Positions 350-62,906 of a stretch of DNA of 64,000 nucleotides are shown one piece after another. The position numbers and the translations under genes were made by a program. Position 1 is the stretch's first letter, and every line of letters begins with the position of its first letter. The DNA is taken from IMG/VR virus record IMGVR_UViG_3300045988_091566; one strand, written 5' to 3'. The notes beneath the pieces are model-generated. The model did no database searches, was not told the DNA's origin, and saw only the letters and a list, made by a program, of their open reading frames with translations. Origin of the DNA: a virus.

Positions 350-466
350 ATGAAACAAATGATTAAAACTGGAAAAGGATTACTATGGAAAATAGAACAC
401 CCAGTAGAAATAGCATATTCTGAGATTACTCTAGATTCTTTATTAAAACTATGTGAAAAAATATGA
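350..466 (+). CDS. small hypothetical protein (38 aa); its stop overlaps the next gene's start in an ATGA motif
   Basis: ATG at 350, TGA at 464-466, in frame 2. No in-frame stop. Overlaps the ATG at 463 of the downstream gene, which suggests translational coupling. Confidence 0.3.
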   Translation: MKQMIKTGKGLLWKIEHPVEIAYSEITLDSLLKLCEKI

Positions 467-1818
467 AATGGATACCTAAATATTAGAAAGCAGGTAAATT
501 AAATTTTAAAACTTCTGGATTGTCTTGGCAACAATCTAAATAGGATTAGGAAGTGACAAGACATACTCAATCTATAGGAATTCTGAATCCTACTAATTTA
601 AAAAGAAGATTATAGACAGCTTCTAAAAATTTAAAAGCTAAATATAATAATCTATCAACTAAAGAGAGAATAGCTTTAGCTAAGAGGAGTGTGCCTCATA
701 GTGAGATAGTTACAGTAAGGGATTAGTAGGGAAATACTAAAACTAGTACTAATCCTCAATCAGGAGCTATGTCAGGAGCAGATCCAGTAGGAGAATTTGT
801 AGTAGGAACTGCTGCAGGAAATTTAGGATTAGGTTTAGGTAAAATGGCTCTTTCTAAAATGGGTTAGAATGCAGTTTCCCATTGGGCAAGAAATAGTTTA
901 CTTAATGAGACCGCTGGAAATTTAACTAAGAATTTAAATAATCCATTAATTGAATCTGAAGCAGTACCTTTAGAAGATGGTTTTGTTTACAGAACATTCA
1001 CTCCCTCACATGGAGGATTTGTAAAAAACAATCGAATATATAATAGAAGCTACGGAATAGGAGATGTAAAAGTTCAGAATGGAAAATACTATTCTGTCAG
1101 ATAGGCTCATTTTAATAATCCTGATAAATTATGGTGGGATAAATTTGGACATAATAGAAGACAAGTAGTATAGGTAACTAAAGAATCTAACACATAGTCT
1201 TTATAGGATGCAGCTAATAACGGATTTAATTTAGGTTATGGATATTATACAAAAGGATATAAATTATCAGATCCTATAGAAATTGATAAAGTTATAAATT
1301 ATAAATTAGATCCTATAACCAACACCATGGTTCCTAGTATACCAGAAAAAATTATAAATAATAAACAAACTCCTTCTGAAATATTAAGTACTTCAGTAGA
1401 GGATAATCCTATTATGCAGTTATCTTATTACAAACCTACTAGAAAAGCTTGGAGTACTGGAAAAGCCGAAGGAAATGAAGCTACTTCTTATTTCTTTAAA
1501 CAATAGCCTAATCAAAGATTTGAATTAGTAAAGGACGTTGAACCTAATAATTATTCAATTCATTTTAAAACAGATAGAGATGGTTTAAGCTATGATAATA
1601 AAATGTAGCTATTTGCTAAGGTTGCAGATGAAGTACCTGAAGGTGCTAATCTCTCTACTTGGGGTTCTATATCTAGAGGAGGTATTCATGGTATAAATAG
1701 ATTTGGTAAAGACTTCGGATTTATCTAGAATGGAACTAGGCAACTTACTATGAAGGGAACTAAAGAACCTGTTAATATTCCAATATTTTAGAAACCTTTG
1801 TCTAGTTCCTTAAAATAA
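463..1818 (+). CDS. hypothetical late/structural protein (451 aa), TAG-recoded (about 15 in-frame TAG codons)
   Basis: Hand translation of frame 1 gives a continuous, protein-like sequence (MKWIPKY*KAGKLNFKTSGLSWQQSK...) from ATG 463 to TAA 1816-1818 when TAG is read as sense. There is no in-frame TAA or TGA. The standard-code ORF track shows nothing here. Confidence 0.6.
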
Positions 1819-1830
1819 ATTATTTAGAGA

Positions 1831-2046
1831 ATGAAATAGTTTTTAATTAAATTAATAACAGCGCATACTGGAATAAGTAGTAAAAGAGTGTGTGGAATAT
1901 TAGGATGGGTAATTAGTTTAGTTATTTTAATATACTGTTCTGTTAGTTAGATACAAGCTCCTGATATGATAGATACAGTTTTATATTGTTGTATGGGATT
2001 ACTAGGTATAGATAGCATAACTAGTATATGGAAAAATAAAGTATAA
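1831..2046 (+). CDS. small membrane protein (71 aa) with two predicted TM segments; holin-like candidate; contains 2 in-frame TAG
   Basis: Frame 1 reads M K * F L I K L I T A H T G I S S K R V C G I L G W V I S L V I L I Y C S V S * I Q A P D M I D T V L Y C C M G L L G I D S I T S I W K N K V, then TAA. There are two hydrophobic stretches. It sits in the late block. Confidence 0.35.
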
Positions 2047-2048
2047 AT

Positions 2049-2345
2049 ATGCCAAGAGGAATTAATGGAGAATATTATAATTATAGAATGCCCTTTGGAG
2101 GGAATTATTCGAATCCTTTAATATCTATATATAGTACAATAATACATTCTATAGATAATAAAAATCCTTATTTAATTACTAAAATTTACCAAACTCCAAC
2201 AAAATCAATACTATTTAATCCTAATATTATAGATGGAAAAGGAACAATGCATATTGATTGGAATAATTTAGATATATTTAAAAGTTTAACTCCAATAATA
2301 GGAAGTGCTTATGTTTATAAGAAGAGTAGGAACATTAATAGATGA
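2049..2345 (+). CDS. hypothetical protein (98 aa)
   Basis: ORF track, frame 3. The start context ATAAATATGCCAAGAG is repeated at 2642. Confidence 0.4.
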   Translation: MPRGINGEYYNYRMPFGGNYSNPLISIYSTIIHSIDNKNPYLITKIYQTPTKSILFNPNIIDGKGTMHIDWNNLDIFKSLTPIIGSAYVYKKSRNINR

Positions 2346-2658
2346 AAGTTTATATAATAGATGTATTGATTTAAGTAAAGATTATTTTGATAGAGATTAT
2401 TATAAATACCCTGAATTATAGCAATGGGCTGAAACTACTAGAAGGTATATTATTCAGGTATGGAGATTACAAAATCAATTAAAATACTATAAAGATAATA
2501 TAGACTTAAATAATTTTAAGAATTATAATCATTATAAATACGGAAAATCTCTTTTAGAGAGTTTTATAGGAAATGTTTTTGATTGGAAATTTATAGATTA
2601 TTCCAATAATGTAACTTATACCCATAATATAAAACATAAATATGCCAAGAGTAGATGA
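2311..2658 (+). CDS. hypothetical protein (about 115 aa) with one in-frame TAG; overlaps the previous ORF in another frame
   Basis: Frame 1 reads ATG 2311 ... TTA TAG CAA TGG GCT ... AGA TGA at 2656-2658. The translation MFIRRVGTLIDESLYNRCIDLSKDYFDRDYYKYPEL*QWAETTRRYIIQVWRLQNQLKYYKDN... looks protein-like. Confidence 0.35.
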
Positions 2659-3778
2659 AAGTAAACAAAATAAAGGAGTAAATAATAATACTCGGAATAA
2701 ATAGATGGCTATAGATATGGAATATTATAATAGATTAAATTATCCTAGGTTTAAATCTCCATATCTTGGTGCTAAATATTAGTAGAGAGTTATTCCAGTT
2801 AGAACTTTAAATGGGATACGAGATGTATTTGTAGATAATAGAGGAACTATAAAATAGGGAGGACATACTCATTCTAAATTATATAATTATAGTAATAAGA
2901 ATAGAACCCATCCTATAAAAGGAGCATATGCTAGAGAAGTAGATAGTTGGAATAATAATACTAGTCCTATTAAAGCATTAGTTAATTCAGGAATAGGTTA
3001 TGCTTTAGCTCCAGCTGCTTAGGCAGTATATGATTATACTAAAGGTGCTTTAGATATATCTAAGAATCCAACTAAAGCTAGTAATTATTTAGTAATGCTT
3101 CCTGTAATAGGATATGCTGTAAAAGCTCCTTTAAAACGTGGAGTAGAAGTAGCTATGAGAACTTCTAATGATGCAAATCCTATAGAAGACATAGTATATA
3201 ATATGCATAAAGCAAGTCCTAAAAAGCATGTTGGAGTATTATCTTATATATCAACTGGTGTAGGTTACAATACTTATGCTCCTGAAGCATATACTGGATT
3301 TTAGAAAGCAGCTAAAGGTAATGATATGATTGATGCTTATTTATATAATAAAACTATAAATCCTTCTTATGGAGTAAAGAAAATAAATGTAGATTATGGT
3401 CCACATGAGAATTATATAAGAAAGATATATCCATATAAAGATATTCCTGTATATGAAAATACTGAAACTTTAGATTTCTTTACTAAGAAACCTATGTAGA
3501 AAGCTTCTAATATAACTAATAAAACTCCTTGGAAAGGTGCTAATAATAATCTAGACTTTGGAGATAATGGAGTTGATGCTGCTGGACATTTAGTTTAGGA
3601 AGGAATATCTAATGGTAAGAAAGTATATAGAGCACAAGATATTTGGAAGTTTAATCCTGATGAATATAAGTAGAAATGGAGTTCATATGATTTAGACAGT
3701 AAAGCTGTATTAGGATTAAAAATATTAGATAAATTAGGAACTCCAGTAATAGTAAGAACACCATGGCTGTATAGGTAA
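2642..3778 (+). CDS. hypothetical late/structural protein (378 aa), TAG-recoded (about 9 in-frame TAG)
   Basis: Frame 2 is continuous from ATG 2642 to TAA 3776-3778 if TAG is read as sense. The ORF-track fragment 3095..3304 lies in the same frame. No in-frame TAA or TGA. Confidence 0.55.
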
Positions 3779-4899
3779 TTACTAACAATGATTCAATATA
3801 TGATTATTGGTATGAAGATGGGTAGTTGTATGGTAGAAGAAAATCAAATAAAGTCCCTTTTAAAATTAATTCTGATAAAGCTAATAGTATAATATTTCCA
3901 TAGGTTTAGGCTAAAGGAGTAGATCCTACTAAACCAACATCTACCTTAGTATACCATCCTGCAAAATATAAAGAAATGCCCACTGCTAAAAAAATATCTA
4001 TTCCTAAATAGGAAAAAGAAACAATATGGGAACGTGGTAAATAGTTGATTAATTTAGTAGGAAATGGATTAAGTAGAAAACTATAGTTATTTTTTGATTC
4101 AGAACCTGAGCATACTAGTAAAAGAATTAAAATTTCTAATAAAAAAATAACTAAAAATAAGAGGAGAGAAAATTTAGAAATAGAAATATCTCCAAATAGT
4201 TATACTATAAATGATACTACTAAAATAAACTCTAGAAGATATCGTATACCAGAATCCATAAATTTAACAAAGCATACTTTTGGTTATAGAAATAGAGGTG
4301 ATTATACTCCTATAAATAGTGTAGCAGCTCCTATTACTGCTTTTTCTAATTTCAAATCTAAAGAAAGCATATCTCCTAATAATTAGAATTATATAGGTAT
4401 AGATTCTATTGGTAAATTTGTTTTTGGTAAATATTCAGATATTCCTAATGGAAGTATGATTTCTCCAACATTTAAAAATACAGTTACTGGTTTTAAAACA
4501 GATTCTAAAGATAATGTATTATTCATGGAAAGTAATTCTAATGGTTCTAGAAAAAGTCCTATATTAAATGCTATAGTAAATGGTAAATCAGTAAATAACA
4601 GACTAAATTTCTTAGCTAATAATAATAGAACTGATGAATATGGTTCTATAGCTGGAGGAAGAATAATTATATAGGCGGGTAAAGAAGTTCGTTTAGTTTC
4701 CGGAAGTATAGATAATATTAGAGATGAGATAGAAGCTATGAAATCTAGAAACAATGTTAAAACAGTAGATTTATATACTTTAGATAATGGTACTTATCAT
4801 TCAGGATTAAGAACTTTTGATAAAATATTTACTAGAGATGACTTACTAAAATATGATGCTCAAAATACGGGCGGAGGAAATTTTTTATATATAAAATAA
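3763..4899 (+). CDS. hypothetical late/structural protein (378 aa), TAG-recoded (about 9 in-frame TAG)
   Basis: Frame 1 is continuous from ATG 3763 to TAA 4897-4899 with TAG as sense (MAVQVITNNDSIYDYWYEDG*LYGRRKSNKVPFK...). The ORF-track fragment 4456..4674 lies in the same frame. Confidence 0.55.
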
Positions 4900-5630: not shown

Positions 5631-6449
5631 TTAAGCATCCAATATTTCAAAGTAATAGTTTTTCCAAAGAATGCCAACATTTCTATTTAGAGTTGCTCTA
5701 CAAGTTTTCATTAATTTAGTAGTTACTAAATTATTATCCATTAACCATTGACAACATTCTGCTATACACCCAAATCTTCTTATTTCATTATGAGAAGAGT
5801 CATATTGTATAACATACTTTTGATTTTGTTTAGTTAATCCAGCTTCTGATAAAACTTGTTTTACTGCTTTAGGATTTAAATTATATCTATCAGCAACTTT
5901 CTTTTGATTTTTTAATTCTATATAAGAACTAATAATTAAATTCTTTAATTCATCAGAAAGTTCGTATTTAGATTCTACTTTTTGTTTATTTTTAGCACCA
6001 TAAGTAGTGGTTTGACTATGACAATTAGGACACAAAAATCTTAGATTTTCTATTCTATTATCATTATTTACACCATTAATATGGTCTAATTCTAGAGATA
6101 AAGTCTTACCCTGCCATTCTGTAATTCCACATATTGCACATGTATAAGGAAGTAATTTGTTTCTTAATATATAGCTTCTTAATATATTACGTGCGTGTTT
6201 TGAATTTTCACATAATAATTTAGAAGCATCTATTTCTTTCTTTTCATTACAGTCGACTATAGCTGATTTGCCTCTAAAATCTTTACCTGATAAATTTAAA
6301 TCTTGCATTCTTTGTTTAACTTGTGAATATCCCCAACTGTTTCCAACAGTAGTATATCCAAGTTTAAATAAAACTTCTGAGATATTCAGACTTGACTTAA
6401 CTAAGTCTGAAAACTCTTTATCCGTAAGTTTATAAATTTTATTTTCCAT
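5631..6449 (-). CDS. HNH homing endonuclease (272 aa)
   Basis: Contains the motif CAICGITEW...LELDHINGVNNDNRIENLRFLCPNCHSQ, a canonical HNH (His-Asn-His) signature, plus a C-terminal helix-turn-helix-like domain. Confidence 0.8.
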   Translation of the reverse strand: MENKIYKLTDKEFSDLVKSSLNISEVLFKLGYTTVGNSWGYSQVKQRMQDLNLSGKDFRGKSAIVDCNEKKEIDASKLLCENSKHARNILRSYILRNKLLPYTCAICGITEWQGKTLSLELDHINGVNNDNRIENLRFLCPNCHSQTTTYGAKNKQKVESKYELSDELKNLIISSYIELKNQKKVADRYNLNPKAVKQVLSEAGLTKQNQKYVIQYDSSHNEIRRFGCIAECCQWLMDNNLVTTKLMKTCRATLNRNVGILWKNYYFEILDA

Positions 6450-15321: not shown

Positions 15322-15585
15322 GTGTTGTTGAGAAACAATGCTCTATATACTATTAACTTTATAAAAATTATAATTATGAAAGTTTTAAGAAAGATATATA
15401 ATGTTATTAATAATAGCATTCAGTCTCGTGTAGTCAATTCTAAAGAAGAGGCTAACAAATACATTATTTCGCTCAATAGAACTTTAGAAAATAAAGTATC
15501 TCTTGAGACAGTAAATAATAAACAGGTAGAAGCCGTTAAAATTAATGGTAAATGGTGTATATCTGAAACTGAAATAATAGAGTAA
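15322..15585 (+). CDS. hypothetical protein (87 aa)
   Basis: ORF track. Confidence 0.4.
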   Translation: MLLRNNALYTINFIKIIIMKVLRKIYNVINNSIQSRVVNSKEEANKYIISLNRTLENKVSLETVNNKQVEAVKINGKWCISETEIIE

Positions 15586-15602: not shown

Positions 15603-15634
15603 ATATTGTTGGCAACTAGCAGATAATTAGTTGC
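15603..15634 (+). repeat. conserved 31-nt element TATTGTTGGCAACTAGCAGATAATTAGTTGC (hairpin GCAACTA/TAGTTGC) immediately upstream of tRNA array 1
   Basis: A near-identical copy lies at 18051-18081, upstream of tRNA array 2. Confidence 0.6.
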
Positions 15635-15638
15635 ACTT

Positions 15639-15711
15639 GGTCCTGTAGCTCAGTGTATAGAGCAGGAATCTTCTAAATTCCGGGTCGTGAGTTAGATTCT
15701 CACCAGGACCA
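15639..15711 (+). tRNA. tRNA-Arg (anticodon TCT)
   Basis: Hand-folded cloverleaf: acceptor GGTCCTG/CAGGACC, D arm GCTC-AGTGTATA-GAGC, anticodon arm GGAAT-CTTCTAA-ATTCC, T arm GTGAG-TTAGATT-CTCAC. 73 nt. Confidence 0.7.
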
Positions 15712-15716
15712 CACAT

Positions 15717-15796
15717 GCGGAGTTAGCTTAATGGCTAGAGCACCTTACTTCCACAATTCATGAGAGGTTATATTGGTTCGAATCCTTTACTCCGTA
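15717..15796 (+). tRNA. atypical tRNA-like gene (80 nt); anticodon arm not canonical, isotype undetermined
   Basis: Acceptor GCGGAGT/ACTCCGT and D arm GCTT-AATGGCTA-GAGC are clear, and it contains GGTTCGAATCC. Positions 26-52 form only a stem (ACCTT/GAGGT) around a 17-nt loop. The T stem is weak. Confidence 0.4.
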
Positions 15797-15812
15797 CTAA
15801 CATTTAAAAAGA

Positions 15813-16172
15813 TTGAGTAATATGAAAAAGATTATTTTATTAATGAGTTTTATTGTATTAACTACAATAGCTCATGCGTTTAATTATGGTTCTATCACTG
15901 TTTATCAAGATGGTGAATGGAGTGATCCATTTTACATTAAAACTTCAGTAGTATATAATGAAGCTAGAAAAACTATTACTTTTAGTAATAGTAAGTTTGG
16001 TAAAATGGTATTAAAAATATACTCTTCTGAAATGAAGGATGGAGTAGAAATCCATAATTGTGGAGAGGTTAATACAGGAAGACGCTTTGTTGTCTTTATT
16101 ACAGTAAGAAATAAAATTCCTTACGTAACTCTTAGTACTTCCGCAGATACCATGTTTTCATTTGGCTTTTAA
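15813..16172 (+). CDS. secreted hypothetical protein (119 aa) with a Sec signal peptide
   Basis: ORF track. N-terminus MSNMKKIILLMSFIVLTTIAHA is a typical signal peptide. The gene is embedded between tRNA genes. Confidence 0.5.
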   Translation: MSNMKKIILLMSFIVLTTIAHAFNYGSITVYQDGEWSDPFYIKTSVVYNEARKTITFSNSKFGKMVLKIYSSEMKDGVEIHNCGEVNTGRRFVVFITVRNKIPYVTLSTSADTMFSFGF

Positions 16173-16227
16173 GTTTCCATAATAATGTGTTAACGTTTTA
16201 CTAGTTTTCCGATATAAACTAGTACTT

Positions 16228-16311
16228 ACGGTAGTAGCTCAGTGGTTAGAGCATCTCTTTTTATAATAGGTCATTTCGAGAAGGTCATTGGTTCGAATCC
16301 TTTCTACCGTA
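16228..16311 (+). tRNA. atypical tRNA-like gene (84 nt); anticodon arm not canonical, isotype undetermined
   Basis: Acceptor ACGGTAG/CTACCGT and D arm GCTC-AGTGGTTA-GAGC are clear. The region ending ATTGGTTCGAATCCTTT is identical to the corresponding region of the 15717 gene. The middle 34 nt fold only as a TCTC/GAGA stem around a 20-nt loop. Confidence 0.4.
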
Positions 16312-16419
16312 CAAATTTAATTTGATATATTGTTAGTGTGTTTGGATAAATCCTGACTAATAAATTTATTAGTATAGGTAGGTGTTACCACTATTCTCCT
16401 TTATAGAAATGTGGGCTAT

Positions 16420-16489
16420 GGAGATATAGCTCAGAAGGTCAGAGCACGGTGAAAATCCCGAGGTTGTGGTTCAATTCCACGTATCTCCA
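16420..16489 (+). tRNA. atypical tRNA-like gene (70 nt); no canonical anticodon stem found
   Basis: Acceptor GGAGATA/TATCTCC, D arm GCTC-AGAAGGTCA-GAGC, T arm TGTGG-TTCAATT-CCACG. The 19 nt in between (ACGGTGAAAATCCCGAGGT) do not form a 5/7/5 arm. Confidence 0.35.
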
Positions 16490-16522
16490 CTATATACAAG
16501 AATAAAATTCTTATGCAGATTA

Positions 16523-16593
16523 GCTCTCTAAGCTTTAAGGTGAAGCACGAAACTTTTAATTTCGGGAAGACAGGTCAGTACTGTCAGGGAGCA
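16523..16593 (+). tRNA. tRNA-Lys (anticodon TTT); genomically encoded CCA follows at 16594-16596
   Basis: Acceptor GCTCTCT/AGGGAGC, D arm GCTT-TAAGGTG-AAGC, anticodon arm CGAAA-CTTTTAA-TTTCG, T arm GACAG-GTCAGTA-CTGTC, discriminator A, then CCA. Confidence 0.65.
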
Positions 16594-16637
16594 CCATTAA
16601 TTTTTAATTTATTAAAAGTATTCATTTGTAATACACG

Positions 16638-16667
16638 AGATTCTCAGTCTGTGAAGATAGAGAATCT
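16638..16667 (+). repeat. copy 3 of the hairpin motif: AGATTCTC-[AGTCTGTGAAGATA]-GAGAATCT
   Basis: 8-bp stem with the conserved loop, between the tRNA-Lys and tRNA-Glu genes. Confidence 0.55.
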
Positions 16668-16671
16668 ACTT

Positions 16672-16744
16672 GGCACTATCGTCTAGCTGGTCAGGACGTA
16701 ACTTTTTCAAAGTTATAAGGCGATTTCGAGCATCGCTAGTGCTA
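16672..16744 (+). tRNA. tRNA-Glu (anticodon TTC)
   Basis: Acceptor GGCACTA/TAGTGCT (G1-U72 wobble), anticodon arm TAACT-TTTTCAA-AGTTA, T arm GCGAT-TTCGAGC-ATCGC. Confidence 0.65.
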
Positions 16745-16825
16745 CTCTTCCATATTTAAAAAACTAATACGATTAATGTTTAAAATATAAAGTCAGCGGA
16801 CTTTATAACGTTAAAGAGTTGTTAG

Positions 16826-16851
16826 GCTTCTTGTCTGTGAAGATAGGGAGC
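16826..16851 (+). repeat. copy 4 of the hairpin motif: GCTTC-[TTGTCTGTGAAGATAG]-GGAGC
   Basis: Conserved loop immediately upstream of the tRNA-Ser gene. Confidence 0.5.
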
Positions 16852-16857
16852 TTTATT

Positions 16858-16945
16858 GGAGAAATGACTGAGTGGTCGAAAGTGGCACCCTGCTAAGGTG
16901 TTAGTCATATTACATGGCTCGAAGGTTCGAATCCTTCTTTCTCCG
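16858..16945 (+). tRNA. tRNA-Ser (anticodon GCT), type II with a long variable arm
   Basis: Acceptor GGAGAAA/TTTCTCC, anticodon arm GCACC-CTGCTAA-GGTGT, long variable arm, T arm GAAGG-TTCGAAT-CCTTC. 88 nt. Confidence 0.65.
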
Positions 16946-16990
16946 CTTTATTCATACTTGTAATTATAAAATATGGTTCGTGAGAATAGT

Positions 16991-17063
16991 ATTTTATTCG
17001 GAGGATTAGTGTAACGGTTTCACACGAGGGACTTTGACTCCCTAATAGGCAGTCCGACTCTGC
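16991..17063 (+). tRNA. tRNA-Gln (anticodon TTG)
   Basis: Acceptor GGAGGAT/ATCCTCT, D arm GTGT-AACGGTTTC-ACAC, anticodon arm AGGGA-CTTTGAC-TCCCT, T arm GGCAG-TCCGACT-CTGCC. Confidence 0.65.
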
Positions 17064-17263
17064 CATCCTCTACTAATTAATACATAGGTACTAAACAACT
17101 CTCAGTAACTCTGTTAAATAGCGTAATTACCTTAAAATTAATCATTTGGGTTAAAAAGAAAAAGAACGTTAGATAACTGAGGACAATGGAATAGTTTAAA
17201 TATAACCAGTGAAAATCGCCTATTATTTAAATAGATTATTAACACATTAATTATAGATAAATT

Positions 17264-17653
17264 ATGACAAGACAAGATTATTTTATTAGTAAAACCAATT
17301 TAATAGCACAAATAGAAAGTGCTAAGAAATTTGGTTGTAAACATGTACTCAAGTGTGCAAAGTTAAATTTAGCTGAACTTGAAAAGAGGTACAAAAAAGA
17401 ACATCTTTCTAATCCTCTGTTCAGTTACATGGTAACTGATGAAGAAATGGACGAACTTATTAGAAATGATGAAAAACCTACATTTAAAATCAAAGTAACT
17501 TTTAAAAGTGGAGAAGCTTATGATTTGATGTTTTATCATGAACTTAAAAGTGGAGTTAAACATTCTGATGTTGTGAAATGGGCGATGATAGGATTAACTA
17601 AAACTATTCATCATCCTGAAAATATTGTAGATGCTCGTTTTATTATGGGTTAA
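17264..17653 (+). CDS. hypothetical protein (129 aa)
   Basis: ORF track. Confidence 0.45.
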   Translation: MTRQDYFISKTNLIAQIESAKKFGCKHVLKCAKLNLAELEKRYKKEHLSNPLFSYMVTDEEMDELIRNDEKPTFKIKVTFKSGEAYDLMFYHELKSGVKHSDVVKWAMIGLTKTIHHPENIVDARFIMG

Positions 17654-17658
17654 AAGAT

Positions 17659-18018
17659 ATGGAAGTAAAAACAATACAGATTGACTCTGATACATTTTTA
17701 GTGTTTAAGGGACGAGAGTACAGACAGATAAACATAAATGATATTGTATGTATAAAAACATCTGGTAAATATAGTACTATAATAGATGTTCATGGCAATA
17801 GTATTATTGTGTGTTGCTCATTAAAAAATATTTCACGTGTTTTATGTATTGATTTTATTCTTGCAACACAAGGATTTTTAATAAATCATAAATACATATC
17901 TGAAATAACTAGAAAGAATGATGAAAATAATACATATATCTTAAAATTAAATGATGATATTCATACAACTGTGAACATTTCATTATACGTAGCTACAAAT
18001 ATGTTAAAACAACTGTAA
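17659..18018 (+). CDS. hypothetical protein (119 aa)
   Basis: ORF track. Confidence 0.45.
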   Translation: MEVKTIQIDSDTFLVFKGREYRQININDIVCIKTSGKYSTIIDVHGNSIIVCCSLKNISRVLCIDFILATQGFLINHKYISEITRKNDENNTYILKLNDDIHTTVNISLYVATNMLKQL

Positions 18019-18050
18019 TACCATAATAGTTATAGGATTTATAAAATAAA

Positions 18051-18081
18051 TATTGTTAGCAACTAGCAGATAATTAGTTGC
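18051..18081 (+). repeat. second copy of the 31-nt element TATTGTTAGCAACTAGCAGATAATTAGTTGC upstream of tRNA array 2
   Basis: One mismatch relative to the copy at 15603-15634. Confidence 0.6.
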
Positions 18082-18087
18082 TTATTA

Positions 18088-18171
18088 ACCCCTTTATCCG
18101 AACAGGTATAGGAGATGGTCTTAAACACCATTTGGCATAAGCCAGTCTGGGTTCGAGTCCCAGAAGGGGTA
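18088..18171 (+). tRNA. tRNA-Leu (anticodon TAA), type II
   Basis: Anticodon arm ATGGT-CTTAAAC-ACCAT, variable hairpin GGC-ATAA-GCC, T arm CTGGG-TTCGAGT-CCCAG, acceptor ACCCCTT/AAGGGGT. 84 nt. Confidence 0.6.
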
Positions 18172-18367
18172 CTAAATTATGACAAAAAATGGTTATTTAA
18201 GTATTTATGAATATTTTTAAACTCATACTAATCATTAATTTGTGAAAATTAATGAATTTCTTGTAATTACCTATATTTAGTCGAGAGTGACTAAAAGCTA
18301 ACTCACATTGCTTGCGAAAGTAGTATGAGTTTTAAATAAGGCTATATAGCAATACTAGTATATATAG

Positions 18368-28584: not shown

Positions 28585-29097
28585 AGAGTTCTAAATTAGA
28601 ACTCTTTTAAGTATGGGGCATTCGTGGTTTTGATTGTATAGGAGATAAGAAGCACAGCAAAGACAGTTGGAAAGACAACAAAACAATAAATGCTAGAGTT
28701 ATCAATATGACTTCTGTTTCTTACGCTATTGCAGCCTAAGAAACCGAGCAGCACTTGCTTAGGAACAGAAAGGTGCACTATTTTCCATTTCTTTTAAGTT
28801 CTCTGTATACTTTAGGAACAGAGTGGTGGAAGTTGACAGTATATTAATCCTGTCAACCCTAACAGACAAGGACAGTCTTTAAAACCTATGCTGTAAGAAC
28901 GTTTTGATGCAAATATGCAAGACTGGAGTTTAATTTCGGACTCGGTATAGAGTGATTTATACAATAATTAATCGGATGAATTCAGGGAACGCTAAAAATA
29001 ATGCTTAGCTAGAACTAACATTATTCATGCCAATCCTGAGCTAAGCATATAGTACACTATATGAAAGTGCAGAGACTACTGGAGAGATTTAGTTCTC
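28585..29097. other. about 510-nt GC-elevated non-coding region immediately 3' of the minus-strand HNH gene; multiple hairpins; candidate structured RNA or intron-like element
   Basis: No credible ORF. Minus-strand hairpins GTTGACAG..CTGTCAAC, CCTAAG..CTTAGG and GCTTAGCT..AGCTAAGC. Confidence 0.3.
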
Positions 29098-29727
29098 TTA
29101 ATTACCAGCTTGAGCGTCCGACCCTTCATTAGAAGGTGATGATATAGTCCACTCCTCATCGAAAGATGAGGTATAGGAAGATATTAGTTTTAAAAACTTT
29201 TTAGTATCTAAATCAGACATTTCAGATTTCATAAAATTTATTGGAGTAGATATAAATTGTACATTTCCTTTGATATAGCCTTTAGAAGAATCTATCCTAT
29301 CAAGAGAGGCTCTGTAAATAAAAGGAATTTTTTTTAGATTTCCATAAGTAGGGAGAATAAGGTCTAGTCCTGTGTAAGGACATTTACCATTTTGTTTTTC
29401 CCATACTTCTTTTAAATATTCTAAATCTATATCAACTTCCTTAAATCTTTTTTTAGCATTTCTAAGGGAATATCTAAAAGGTGTATATTCATCTTCATGA
29501 TTATTACATATATTTAATAGGTGTTCTCTTTGTTTATCTGAAATTGGTCTGCCAGCTCTACTTTTATTATTAAATTTAGCTGCACATGATCTAGAACAAA
29601 AATTATGTCTTCCTAATCTAACATTTCTTTTGTACTCGGATTCAGGTTTCTGAAATTCCTTACCACAACAATCACAAGTGATTGTAACTAACTTTCTACC
29701 AATACAATACTTTTTTAATTCTGTCAT
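29098..29727 (-). CDS. HNH homing endonuclease (HNH_3-like; 209 aa)
   Basis: N-terminal Cys-rich region CDCCGKEF..CSRSCAAKF. C-terminal NGKCPYTGLDL...SLDRIDSSKGYIKGNVQFIS, matching the LDRIDNxKGY HNH_3-type signature. Confidence 0.75.
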   Translation of the reverse strand: MTELKKYCIGRKLVTITCDCCGKEFQKPESEYKRNVRLGRHNFCSRSCAAKFNNKSRAGRPISDKQREHLLNICNNHEDEYTPFRYSLRNAKKRFKEVDIDLEYLKEVWEKQNGKCPYTGLDLILPTYGNLKKIPFIYRASLDRIDSSKGYIKGNVQFISTPINFMKSEMSDLDTKKFLKLISSYTSSFDEEWTISSPSNEGSDAQAGN

Positions 29728-35941: not shown

Positions 35942-36097
35942 ATGAAGAAATTACTTGTATTTAGTGTGTTATTTACACTCTTGAGTTGTTCTACTGGTTC
36001 AAATAATTCAGTAAATTCAACTTCAAATGATTCTATTAATGTTGATACTACAGTAGTTGATACTACTGCTATTGATTCAACTGTATGTCCTGATTAA
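35942..36097 (+). CDS. small lipoprotein (51 aa) with a lipobox
   Basis: Hand translation MKKLLVFSVLFTLLSCSTGSNNS... contains a signal peptide and an LLSC lipobox. Missed by the ORF track because it is under 60 aa. Confidence 0.45.
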   Translation: MKKLLVFSVLFTLLSCSTGSNNSVNSTSNDSINVDTTVVDTTAIDSTVCPD

Positions 36098-36108
36098 TCA
36101 GGACTTTC

Positions 36109-36181
36109 GCCTAGGTAGTTCAGTGGTTAGAACGCGAAACTGTTAATTTCGATGTCGGGAGTTCGATTCTCTCCCTTGGCG
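36109..36181 (+). tRNA. tRNA-Asn (anticodon GTT)
   Basis: D arm GTTC-AGTGGTTA-GAAC, anticodon arm CGAAA-CTGTTAA-TTTCG, T arm GGGAG-TTCGATT-CTCTC. One U-U mismatch in the acceptor stem. Confidence 0.6.
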
Positions 36182-36252
36182 CAATAATATATGCCTCTTA
36201 TTTCTAAGGTTAGCTGCCTTCTCGAAAAGAAATGTGTACACAAGAAGCGCCT

Positions 36253-36329
36253 AGAGTATTAAGCCCTGTTGGTAAGGGAACTAGACTATCACTCTAGTAA
36301 AACTAAGGGTTCGAGTCCCTTATATTCCG
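36253..36329 (+). tRNA. tRNA-Asp-like with A34: anticodon loop CTATCAC (anticodon ATC) where Asp tRNAs normally carry CTGTCAC
   Basis: T arm AAGGG-TTCGAGT-CCCTT, anticodon arm CTAGA-CTATCAC-TCTAG, D stem CCC/GGG, acceptor AGAGTAT/ATATTCC (one mismatch). Confidence 0.4.
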
Positions 36330-36353
36330 CAACTAATTAAAAAAATAAATAAT

Positions 36354-36830
36354 ATGAAAGAAACTTTTAATTATCAATCTGACGCAAACTTTTATGATAA
36401 AAAGGATTTTATTATAGCTGTTTTAAAAAGCAAAATAAATAGTTTTAAAGAGTATGATGCTGAAAGAAAAAAGCATTATGCGGGACTAGAACAAAAAATC
36501 GGAGAATTAGAATCCTATATAGATGAATTAGAAAATGGGCTTAATATAGATTCTTTAAATAATAAGATTCAATCTTTAGAAAATAAGATTGAAAAACAAA
36601 AACTTAAAATTAAAGAATTACAAGCTAAAGTTAATATATCTTTATTTGATGATACTAAGTCTTTTAAAGAGTTAGAATCTATAGCAAATAATTTAAAGAA
36701 CTTTAATAGCATGAAATTAGCTAATAAAGCCCTCAAAAAACATCTTAAAGATAATAAAAAAACTATATCTGATTTAGTATATGAATTAACACAAGCTAAA
36801 CTTAAAATAAAACAATTAACTGGAGAGTAA
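36354..36830 (+). CDS. hypothetical coiled-coil protein (158 aa)
   Basis: ORF track. Confidence 0.45.
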   Translation: MKETFNYQSDANFYDKKDFIIAVLKSKINSFKEYDAERKKHYAGLEQKIGELESYIDELENGLNIDSLNNKIQSLENKIEKQKLKIKELQAKVNISLFDDTKSFKELESIANNLKNFNSMKLANKALKKHLKDNKKTISDLVYELTQAKLKIKQLTGE

Positions 36831-36840
36831 TCTCCAATTT

Positions 36841-36914
36841 GGGCTCGTAGTTCAGTTGGCTAGAACGCTACTTTTGCAAGGTAGATGTCGTGGGTTCGAG
36901 TCCCACCGTGGTCC
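36841..36914 (+). tRNA. tRNA-Ala(TGC)-like with a degenerate acceptor stem (possible pseudo-tRNA)
   Basis: D arm GTTC-AGTTGGCTA-GAAC, anticodon arm CTACT-TTTGCAA-GGTAG, T arm GTGGG-TTCGAGT-CCCAC. Acceptor GGGCTCG vs CGTGGTC has 2 mismatches, and there is a G3-G70 pair rather than the G3-U70 Ala identity pair. Confidence 0.35.
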
Positions 36915-43978: not shown

Positions 43979-44409
43979 CAAACACTAAGCAGAAACTTGT
44001 AGATTACAGAGAAGGTAATTTTGTAGACTTTGAAGGTAAAGATCATTACTTTGTAGTATGCGCTGTTCTCAGAGAAAATGCTATATTTGAAAATCCTACT
44101 AGAATTCTTAGTTTTGGAGTATCTTTCTGTAATCCAGTAGATAAACATAACAATGAACTTGGTAAGAAAATTGCTTATGGTAAAAGTATTAGTGATAGAA
44201 ATACCAATGTACTATTAGGTAGAGCAGGACTTCTTAATATTGAGACTGTGAAATACATACTCGATAATGAAGTAAATCACGTAAAACAATATCCTGAACA
44301 GTATAGTGTGGCATATGCTAAAGCTAAAGATAAATATGAAAAAGCTAAAGAAAAAACTAAAGCTTTAGCTCAAAAAGCAGCTTTATATAATAAGGCAGTA
44401 GCAGATTAA
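43975..44409 (+). CDS. hypothetical protein (144 aa)
   Basis: ORF track. Confidence 0.45.
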   Translation: MTNTKQKLVDYREGNFVDFEGKDHYFVVCAVLRENAIFENPTRILSFGVSFCNPVDKHNNELGKKIAYGKSISDRNTNVLLGRAGLLNIETVKYILDNEVNHVKQYPEQYSVAYAKAKDKYEKAKEKTKALAQKAALYNKAVAD

Positions 44410-61514: not shown

Positions 61515-61574
61515 AAATTTATTTGCTTCTTGTACAAATCTATATATAGTCATCTTAACTAAATCATAATACAG

Positions 61575-62906
61575 ATGAATAAAGAATATTTTATTAAAAA
61601 AGCTCAAGAAATTCATGGAAATAAGTATGATTATTCCCTAGTAGAAGTTTCTAGATCAAAAGATAAAGTTAAGATAATATGTCCTATTCATGGAGTGTTT
61701 GTGCAAGAAGCAAATTCACATTTATAGGGACGAGGTTGTGCTATTTGTTCAGGTAAAAAATTTGATTTAGATACCTTTATACGAAAAGCAAATAAAATTT
61801 GGAATAATAAATATGATTATTCCAAAGTAGTCTATACGGGTACTAATAACAAAGTATGTATCATATGTCCTGAACATGGAGAATTTTGGCAAACAGTTAG
61901 TAATCATTTAAAAGGACAATGTGCTTGTAAGGAATGCCGAGGAAAAAGTAAAGATTTTAAAGTAATTAGATCCAAAGAGGATTTTGTAAAAGCTGCTAAT
62001 GAAAAGTATAATTATAAATTTGATTATTCAAAAGTAGATTTTAAAGGTAGTAGAGAAAAAGTTTGTATTATATGCCCTGAACATGGAGAATTTTGGTAGT
62101 TACCTTATCAGCATTTAAATTGTAAAAATGGATGTCCTAAATGTACTAATACTTTCAGATTTACTCAAGATGAATTTATTAAAGAATGTGAGAAAATTCA
62201 TCCCGAATATACTACAAATAAAACTGTTTATACTGGAATAACTAATTCAGTAATTTTAACTTGCCCAAAACATGGAGATTTTAGCATATTAGCATCAACT
62301 TTAATATACCATCATGGATATTGTCCAGATTGTGCTATAGAATCTTATACTTTAACTAAAGAAGATTTTATAAAAAAAGCTAGAGAAGTTCATGGTTGGA
62401 AATACGATTATAGTGAAGTTAATTATATAAATTATAAAACTCCAATTACTATCATTTGCCCAAAACATGGTAAATTTGAGCAATCACCAGGTAATCATTT
62501 AAAAGGGTGTAAATGCCCTGAATGTGCTAGAGAACAAATAGAGCCTAGTAAAGGAGAATTATTTATAAAAAATTTATTAAATAAATATCATTGTAAATAT
62601 AAATTTCAATATGAGATAAAGACTAAAGAAATAGCACGTAATTCTAATAAAATTATAGTAGATTTCATAGTAAAACATAATGATTGTATTTATATAATAG
62701 AATATAATGGAAAACAACATTATGAATTTATACCATTTTTTCATAATAGCCAAGAAGATTTTCAAAAACAAATTAGAAGAGATAATTTATTAAGAAAAAT
62801 ATGTAGTAAACATCCTGGAAAATTAGAATTGATAGAAATTCCTTATAATTATTCTAATTCTAAAATAATAGATACACTCTCTTTTTTAGATGAAACAAAA
62901 ATTTAA
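61575..62906 (+). CDS. paralog of the 53573 gene: Zn-ribbon-repeat plus DUF559-like endonuclease with 2 in-frame TAG (61725, 62097)
   Basis: Frame 3 is continuous from ATG 61575 to TAA 62904-62906 if TAG is sense. Repeats KYDYS.V.Y.....KV.IICPEHGEFW*LPYQHL...GCPKC. C-terminal IVDFIVKHNDCIYIIEYNGKQHY. Invisible in the ORF track. Confidence 0.55.

Follow-up and report, generated by a model that had tools for sequence, protein, structure and literature searches.

A near-invariant box-and-hairpin element at the head of phage tRNA arrays, a possible transcribed leader module

What does a short hairpin-forming sequence do when it stands directly ahead of two transfer RNA (tRNA) arrays of the same phage? 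The question is raised by a stretch of viral DNA from IMG/VR record IMGVR_UViG_3300045988_091566 (64,000 nucleotides (nt), one strand; hereafter the window), in which our initial annotation of the region 15,603–18,081 described an identical 31-nt element before each array and offered it as a tRNA-operon promoter, an operator or an RNase processing hairpin. The pattern TATTGTTRGCAACTAGCAGATAATTAGTTGC matched exactly at 15604–15634 and 18051–18081 only, both on the plus strand and with up to three mismatches allowed, and had no match in 100 dinucleotide shuffles. Thus the claim that the window holds two copies and no others was confirmed, yet the 5' box of the element recurs alone (ATATTGTTAG, 16327–16336, plus strand) just 3' of the tRNA at 16228–16312, inside array 1, a placement kept in approximately 37 related loci. 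The word identical needed correction: the same pattern does occur twice, but the copies differ at one base (position 8, which is G in copy 1 and A, at 18058, in copy 2), and the conserved block is really 32–34 nt long, including an A before TATTG and usually an A or T ahead of that A.

Both 32-nt copies (copy 1, 15603–15634; copy 2, 18050–18081; plus strand) contain the perfect inverted repeat of 7 base pairs (bp), GCAACTA/TAGTTGC, that had been annotated. Copy 1 consists of the box ATATTGTTG (15603–15611), a stem of 8 bp (15612–15619 paired with 15627–15634, including G15619.U15627) and the loop CAGATAA (15620–15626), and copy 2 of the box ATATTGTTA (18050–18058), a stem (18059–18066 paired with 18074–18081) and a loop (18067–18073). 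As RNA, the inverted repeat together with the G.U pair was predicted to fold into 8 bp closed by a 7-nt loop, at -6.7 kcal/mol. The distance to the first tRNA, annotated as 4–7 nt, was 4 nt ('actt') between copy 1 and tRNA-Arg(UCU) (15639–15712, plus strand) and 6 nt ('ttatta') between copy 2 and tRNA-Leu(UAA) (18088–18172, plus strand), both of these tRNAs being called by ARAGORN and Rfam. The element heads the arrays that start at 15639 and 18088, as first described, but a third tRNA cluster in the window (36109–36914) is without it.

Related loci (labelled L with a number, such as L135 or L182) were retrieved through the protein of a neighboring LytTR gene, and not through the element, from 28 viral and 60 metagenomic sequences, and the element statistics given here cover 125 copies in 89 loci. 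The initial annotation had called for a search of related phage genomes for the element ahead of their tRNA arrays; all 89 loci carried it (one copy in 53, two in 36), always in the sense orientation relative to the tRNAs and always at the head of an array. Among viral contigs, 31 stretches contained its 23-nt hairpin core, and no contig had more than two copies. A host origin was rejected, as a degenerate pattern that allowed for all variants had no match in 185,579 bacterial and archaeal genomes.

Conservation of the element was extreme. Ninety-four of the 125 copies were identical over all 32 nt, and in 42 loci whose LytTR coding sequences were only 64% identical as DNA to that of the window (52% at third codon positions) none of the 32 positions had changed; homology on both flanks stopped at the element. 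Because the element was nearly invariant over some 90 related contigs, we regard it as a real signal that marks the heads of the arrays. Such changes as did occur were unevenly placed: the outer four stem pairs varied by compensatory substitution or G.U pairing, the inner four pairs were unchanged, the loop had a single variable position (T to C in 18 or more copies), and the 5' box, ATATTGTT, varied at its final base alone (G to A in window copy 2 and in L126). Pair 10–30 changed from C-G to U-A in L135 and a second time in the distant L182 and L183, and to U.G in L176; pair 11–29 changed from A-U to U-A in L116 and to G-C in L182; and pair 9–31 changed from G-C to G.U in several lineages. 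Over nine distinct sequences, 98.6% of cells were paired, with compensatory change at two pairs, a result that 12 of 500 shuffles reached. This pattern of compensatory and paired substitution shows that the helix was selected as a helix, and the apex and the box as sequence. The element is thus under very strong purifying selection, with its stem kept by compensatory change. More distant LytTR homologs (39–41% amino acid (aa) identity) yielded further variants of the element, and a search of viral contigs with the stem left free (TATTGTTR-N7-GCAGAYAAT) gave mostly chance matches and one new true variant, in L065.

The distance between the element and tRNA-Arg(UCU) or tRNA-Leu(UAA) was 4–6 nt in 60 cases and 10–11 nt in 8. 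At other loci an insert of approximately 58 nt, a structured RNA of approximately 155–190 nt or an endonuclease-like open reading frame (ORF) separated the element from the tRNA. The element was kept intact despite the 58-nt insert, the 155–190-nt RNA or a distance of 87 nt, and the first tRNA then had a hairpin of its own. In L178–180, the core TATTGTT..CAACTAGCAGATAATTAGTT persists 87 nt ahead of tRNA-Arg, which has its own hairpin 4 nt away; the element is thus tied to the start of the array and not to contact with the tRNA.

The intervening sequences have features of their own. The conserved insert of approximately 58 nt (GTCTAAAGGTTGGCAGTAT..CCACTAGAC..ACTGCCAAA; L107:4565–4625 and 20 other contexts, and L182:4050–4104) had no Rfam match and may form a pseudoknot. 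An alternative partner for its segment GGCAGUAUU is the 5' box of the element, a possible pairing confined to loci that have the insert; a search for long-range pairing of the box with the array found no conserved partner in the window. The structured RNA (GGCTGTATACC...GCCTCAC) follows the element at L114:4569–4724 and L171:4550–4705, and occurs at L181:1241–1420 without it; an alignment of three sequences contained three compensatory pairs, and Rfam again gave no match.

We also considered whether the element is mainly a recombination junction resembling the promoter-early stem-loop (PeSL) cassettes of T4-type phages, a linker at which unrelated flanking modules are exchanged by homologous recombination (PMC2839356, PMC4122927). 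One and the same upstream class was joined to as many as six downstream classes, the converse was also true, and the breakpoint coincided exactly with the 3' end of the element. In L099 (737–1440) and at the same place in L136, the insertion of an ORF resembling a homing endonuclease or helix-turn-helix zinc-finger protein lies exactly at the junction of the element with tRNA-Arg. Recombination alone, however, explains neither the conservation of 32 nt at saturating divergence nor the compensatory changes in the stem; the element is present once or twice per genome, whereas PeSLs are numerous, and the mosaicism could be no more than a consequence of quick replacement of the first tRNA beside a constrained element. 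We therefore think it quite unlikely that the element is such a junction, a role that would in any case be compatible with one in expression.

Hairpins also precede other tRNAs of this family. In the window, folds of 60 nt placed a hairpin ending 2–5 nt upstream of the tRNAs at 16228 and 16420 and of those for Arg, Glu, Ser, Gln, Leu, Asn and Ala. Over 279 distinct tRNA contexts, the minimum free energy of the upstream 40 nt averaged -7.5 kcal/mol, as compared to -4.1 kcal/mol in random controls (p = 6e-26), and the distance from the 3' end of the hairpin to the tRNA had a sharp peak at 4 nt, with 66 cases as against 29 for 3 nt and 22 for 5 nt, whereas the controls were flat. One set, which we term class-2 hairpins, precedes the internal tRNA-Glu, tRNA-Ser and tRNA-Asn genes; in its members the basal stem varies and covaries, whereas the apex, (Y)RGTYTGTGA(W)AGATAG, is conserved and carries a GNRA-type tetraloop, and the usual distance to the tRNA is 4 nt. 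Window examples on the plus strand lie at 16638–16667, 4 nt before tRNA-Glu, with a variable basal stem and the apex AGTCTGTGAAGATAG, and at 16824–16853, 4 nt before tRNA-Ser. In 14 loci the 5' box of the element stands directly 5' of a class-2 hairpin. In their pattern of variation, the class-2 hairpins share the design of the element, namely a variable covarying base below a conserved apex. This second family was also observed at 16966–16997, at approximately 18300–18330 and 18485–18512, and in many related loci. The hairpin at 16966–16997 (plus strand, GTGA tetraloop) ends 2 nt before tRNA-Gln, and further plus-strand leader hairpins lie at 16199–16224, 3–4 nt before the tRNA at 16228, and at 36087–36104 and 36821–36836, each 4 nt before its tRNA (tRNA-Asn and tRNA-Ala, respectively) and each with the stop codon of the upstream ORF in its loop. 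We rejected this layout as a general host property; the arrangement of hairpin, 4 nt and tRNA was rare in Lak-C1 and only partial in the crAss-like cr124_1, and for this reason we regard it as a trait of the family.

Because the hairpin is under selection and because the layout of hairpin, approximately 4 nt and tRNA is general in the family, a reading at the level of RNA, of the processing type, is favored among the functions first proposed, as far as comparison of sequences can indicate. We tentatively propose, with confidence a little short of even, that the element is transcribed and acts in cis as a leader module heading the tRNA array, with a role in processing, protection or antitermination. 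Such a module would comprise a 9-nt single-stranded box (AUAUUGUUG) followed by the 8-bp hairpin, whose basal pairs would need only to pair and whose apical stem and loop (CUAG-CAGAUAA-UUAG) would be read sequence-specifically by a protein or RNase. Transcription would enter from the co-directional upstream genes. Read-through of this kind is plausible because we found no terminator and no promoter consensus between the upstream ORFs and either window copy; the ORF ahead of copy 1 encodes 69 aa (15376–15585, plus strand) and its stop codon lies 18 nt from the element. RNase P would then cut at the 5' end of the tRNA and leave an upstream RNA ending in the hairpin and approximately 4 nt. A tail of about 4 nt behind a hairpin is too short for 3' exonucleases.

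The frozen box and loop imply, in addition, a specific partner for the first hairpin of the array. One option is that the element would serve as a site of entry or cleavage at which the array would be split off from the messenger RNA and left with a hairpin at its 5' end. Cleavage of the RNase E type prefers RN/WUU, and the AU/AUU in the box fits this preference, with the cut between the two halves. Another option is that the box and hairpin would act as a nut-like site, keeping RNA polymerase elongating over the approximately 1–2.5 kilobases (kb) of untranslated, structured RNA that follow. We consider these two the likely roles of the first hairpin. Bacterial stable-RNA operons use an antitermination logic of boxA plus hairpin. 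The box of the element had, by eye, no convincing match to the boxA consensus, and the element had no similarity to boxB; the small neighboring ORFs, considered as possible N-like partners, had neither a Pfam match nor an arginine-rich N-terminus. The element matched no Rfam family at the gathering threshold or at E <= 5–10. A terminator or small RNA on the minus strand was rejected, as that strand has no T-run and no converging genes are present.

Several observations weigh against a transcribed leader module. The stability of the hairpin is only moderate (z = -1.8 at -6.7 kcal/mol), and a fold of about the same quality is predicted for the minus strand of the element. The excess stability of the leader hairpins on the plus strand was largely equaled by random 40-mers, and is therefore no proof of constraint at the level of RNA; the asymmetry of folding between strands, which we considered as a test of RNA versus DNA, was rejected because it is confounded by base composition. 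An A.C mismatch interrupts the stem in copy 2 of one lineage, and members of the L178 clade have kept the sequence core but have a degenerate basal stem, which fits recognition of a DNA sequence equally well. Many related loci have a T-rich stretch a few nt ahead of the element, and if it terminates transcription, the element would there need a promoter of its own. Finally, 32 nearly frozen nt are more than most RNA processing signals require.

It might also be supposed that the hairpin is an intrinsic terminator for the LytTR gene or for the 69-aa ORF. At loci with the 58-nt insert or an inserted ORF, the sequence 3' of the hairpin is (T)CC-T5-7 or GC-T5, and the hairpin scored as terminator-like. 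However, the window copies have no T-run (ACTTGG and TTATTA follow them) and neither was called as a terminator; termination at the element would leave the arrays without any recognizable promoter; and a terminator would need neither the frozen loop nor the 5' box. We regard this explanation as highly improbable. A terminator-like hairpin with a T-run (18750–18784, plus strand) does occur in the window, where it closes array 2.

The gene through which the related loci were found raises the alternative that the element works as duplex DNA. A stand-alone LytTR DNA-binding domain protein of 119 aa is encoded at 17659–18018 on the plus strand (Pfam PF04397, 31.7 bits against a cut-off of 22.6), and a search for solved structures related to the LytTR profile found none at E <= 1. 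The gene sits between the two tRNA arrays, and approximately 130 homologs were found, nearly all from the same family of ~180-kb phages. The stop codon is separated from copy 2 by 33 nt, and synteny of the gene with the element extends to each of the 89 loci, so that an obvious candidate protein exists for the operator of the initial annotation. According to this alternative, the element would be a promoter or operator read as duplex DNA by a phage-specific factor, possibly the adjacent LytTR protein, with transcription starting at about its 3' edge. The sequence TWGTTGS occurs at element positions 3–9 and 25–31 (TTGTTGG and TAGTTGC, offset by 22 bp), a third copy, ATGTTGG, lies approximately 21 bp further upstream in many loci, and these GTTG repeats recall LytTR sites, which are 9-bp direct repeats with spacers of 11–13 bp (PMC6193735). 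Flanking homology that ends exactly at the element on both sides, and a role independent of the distance to the first tRNA, would both suit a DNA site, and a GATAAT within the loop would place the transcription start at about the last base of the element.

Other observations count against this reading. Changes in the 3' repeat (GTTG to GTAG, GTCA or GTTA, in L116, L182 and L135) were matched in the inverted arm and not in the 5' direct repeat, so that it is the inverted repeat that is kept. LytTR activators bind approximately 10 bp upstream of a -35 element (PMC6193735), and the tRNA starts 4–6 nt after the element, which therefore leaves no room for a promoter activated in this classical way. 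The distance to the upstream ATGTTGG changes with the length of the T-run, divergence among the LytTR proteins (36–100% aa identity) does not track divergence of the element, and only one or two copies are found per ~180 kb.

Known promoter types did not fit either. No sigma-70 and no Bacteroidetes -33/-7 arrangement fits the element: a scan for host-type sigma-70 promoters, with -35 and -10 hexamers 16–18 bp apart, gave no site at either copy and a total for the window equal to the shuffled expectation, and the Bacteroidetes pattern TTG.{17,21}TA..TTTG matched only at 44087 and 59734. The sequence TATTGTTG is one mismatch from TAnnTTTG, and its final G varies or is deleted. A sigma-54 site (TGGCA...TTGC) was rejected by eye, since its two parts are 10 bp further apart than they should be and copy 2 no longer has the GG. 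What is left of the promoter first proposed is a version that would depend on a polymerase or factor specific to the phage. Literature searches on crAss promoters, or on LytTR proteins linked to phage tRNAs, returned nothing directly relevant. We consider a duplex-DNA promoter or operator unlikely, and continue to prefer a transcribed leader module.

The source of the window bears on a further alternative, and it looks like a large crAss-like gut phage that is partly recoded at TAG. G+C content in the window is 27–35%, and nearly all genes lie on the plus strand; the primase is closest to those of crAss-like phages, with approximately 35% aa identity to cr50_1 and cr10_1, and the sizes of related contigs cluster at 170–190 kb. 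Long reading frames at 457–1818, 2633–3778 and 3733–4899 (within 457–4899) and at 61563–62906 require that TAG be read as sense. A tRNA with a CUA anticodon was found in the relative L002 (1260–1332, minus strand).

The early promoters of phage N4 are DNA hairpins, extruded on one strand, at which the virion RNA polymerase initiates a few nt 3' of the stem; they combine conserved stem and loop bases with bases needed for pairing only, and are very few per genome (PMC4496689). The element shares this design, in that its outer four pairs covary, its inner stem and loop are frozen, its copy number is low and its distance from stem to tRNA is tightly fixed at approximately 4 nt. Moreover, the phage is crAss-like; in vitro, gp66, the virion polymerase of crAss-type phages, uses single-stranded DNA as a template but not double-stranded DNA, and no early-promoter motif is known for it (10.1101/2020.03.07.982082). 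In contrast to the 3-nt loop within a GC-rich heptamer of N4, however, the loop of the element has 7 nt, or 9 if the G.U pair is not counted, and is AT-rich, and extrusion would therefore be costly, and the crAss polymerase is unrelated to the N4 virion RNA polymerase. The other leader hairpins are unrelated in sequence, some of them containing the stop codons of upstream ORFs, and adjacent tRNAs without hairpins need processing regardless. We judge a hairpin promoter of the N4 type to be very unlikely, and the preference for an RNA leader is unchanged.

Other features of the region and its relatives were observed in passing. Five tRNA or tRNA-like genes of the window are atypical (15717–15796, 16420–16489, 16523–16594, 16228–16312 and 18368–18440): two were found by Rfam only, one is suggested solely by a weak antisense match, and ARAGORN labels one 'Stop (tta)' and assigns no definite anticodon to another. 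Such genes are likely to contain introns or unusual anticodon loops. A motif, AATATATGCGAAAAACT, abuts the 5' ends of tRNA-Lys and tRNA-Ile in L065 (5055–5075; 4817–4835, minus strand), and the related TTATGCGAAAACTT occurs in array 2 of the window (approximately 18513–18530). The intergenic segment that follows tRNA-Gln, 17084–17252, is 93–95% identical to sequences of Lak megaphages and approximately 87% identical to the crAss-like cr124_1 and cr7_1; its counterpart in cr124_1 adjoins a tRNA-Met. One possibility is a non-coding RNA element that is mobile or shared. Further away, the region of replication genes contains a group I intron at 28915–29171 (Rfam RF00028, 85.9 bits), and an HNH endonuclease gene lies at 5631–6449 on the minus strand, where the GC skew is reversed (4–8 kb).

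Large crAss-like gut phages carry many tRNAs and read TAG as sense in some of their genes, and the element offers a handle on the expression of their tRNA arrays as well as a specific marker for this phage family. No description of the element itself was found in the literature that we searched. Almost all tRNAs of these phages follow a hairpin that ends approximately 4 nt before them, in two conserved classes. This layout points to an organized processing of tRNA-array RNA and, as a general feature, may matter more than the element. In the literature searched, neither such a scheme nor a LytTR regulator inside a phage tRNA region, an association also worth attention, was described. There is a slight chance, by analogy with the systems above, that the hairpin layout or the element constitutes DNA-hairpin promoters for a virion polymerase starting at about the first base of the tRNA, or that a LytTR switch times the expression of the arrays. 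If the former were true, the element would be a functional analog of the N4 early promoters; if the latter, it would bear on the timing of tRNA arrays in a phage that partly reads TAG as sense.

Compared with systems that have been described, the element meets the full definition of no known kind, and resembles leader and antiterminator hairpins, promoter stem-loops and tRNA-punctuated processing. Like the LytTR operators of AgrA, ComE and HdrR/BrsR, it has a LytTR gene beside it and GTT-core repeats with a period of approximately 21–22 bp (PMC6193735), but its geometry relative to the transcribed gene is wrong for such an operator, and it keeps an inverted and not a direct repeat. PeSLs are likewise short, conserved, intergenic stem-loop modules at mosaic junctions (PMC2839356, PMC4122927); they consist, however, of a recognizable sigma-70 early promoter and a terminator-like stem-loop and are numerous in a genome, whereas the element has no promoter consensus, occurs in one or two copies at the heads of tRNA arrays only, and is far more strictly conserved. 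With the hairpin promoters of N4 it has in common the inverted repeat, the combination of conserved and pairing-only bases, the few copies and a short, fixed 3' spacer (PMC4496689), and it differs from them in its AT-rich loop of 7–9 nt and in belonging to a crAss-like phage with an unrelated polymerase. The hairpins of tRNA punctuation and the inverted-repeat stabilizers of RNA 3' ends, known from mRNA processing in organelles and bacteria, offer another likeness, since the hairpin of the element directly precedes a tRNA and an RNase P cut would give a 3' end protected by it, but punctuation hairpins are not conserved in sequence, unlike the frozen loop and 5' box found here. In architecture alone, the element is like the nut sites and the antiterminators of rrn leaders, in which a linear box is followed on the sense strand by a hairpin with a sequence-specific loop, and like the nut sites of lambdoid phages, it is present in one or two near-identical copies per genome ahead of the RNA to be traversed.

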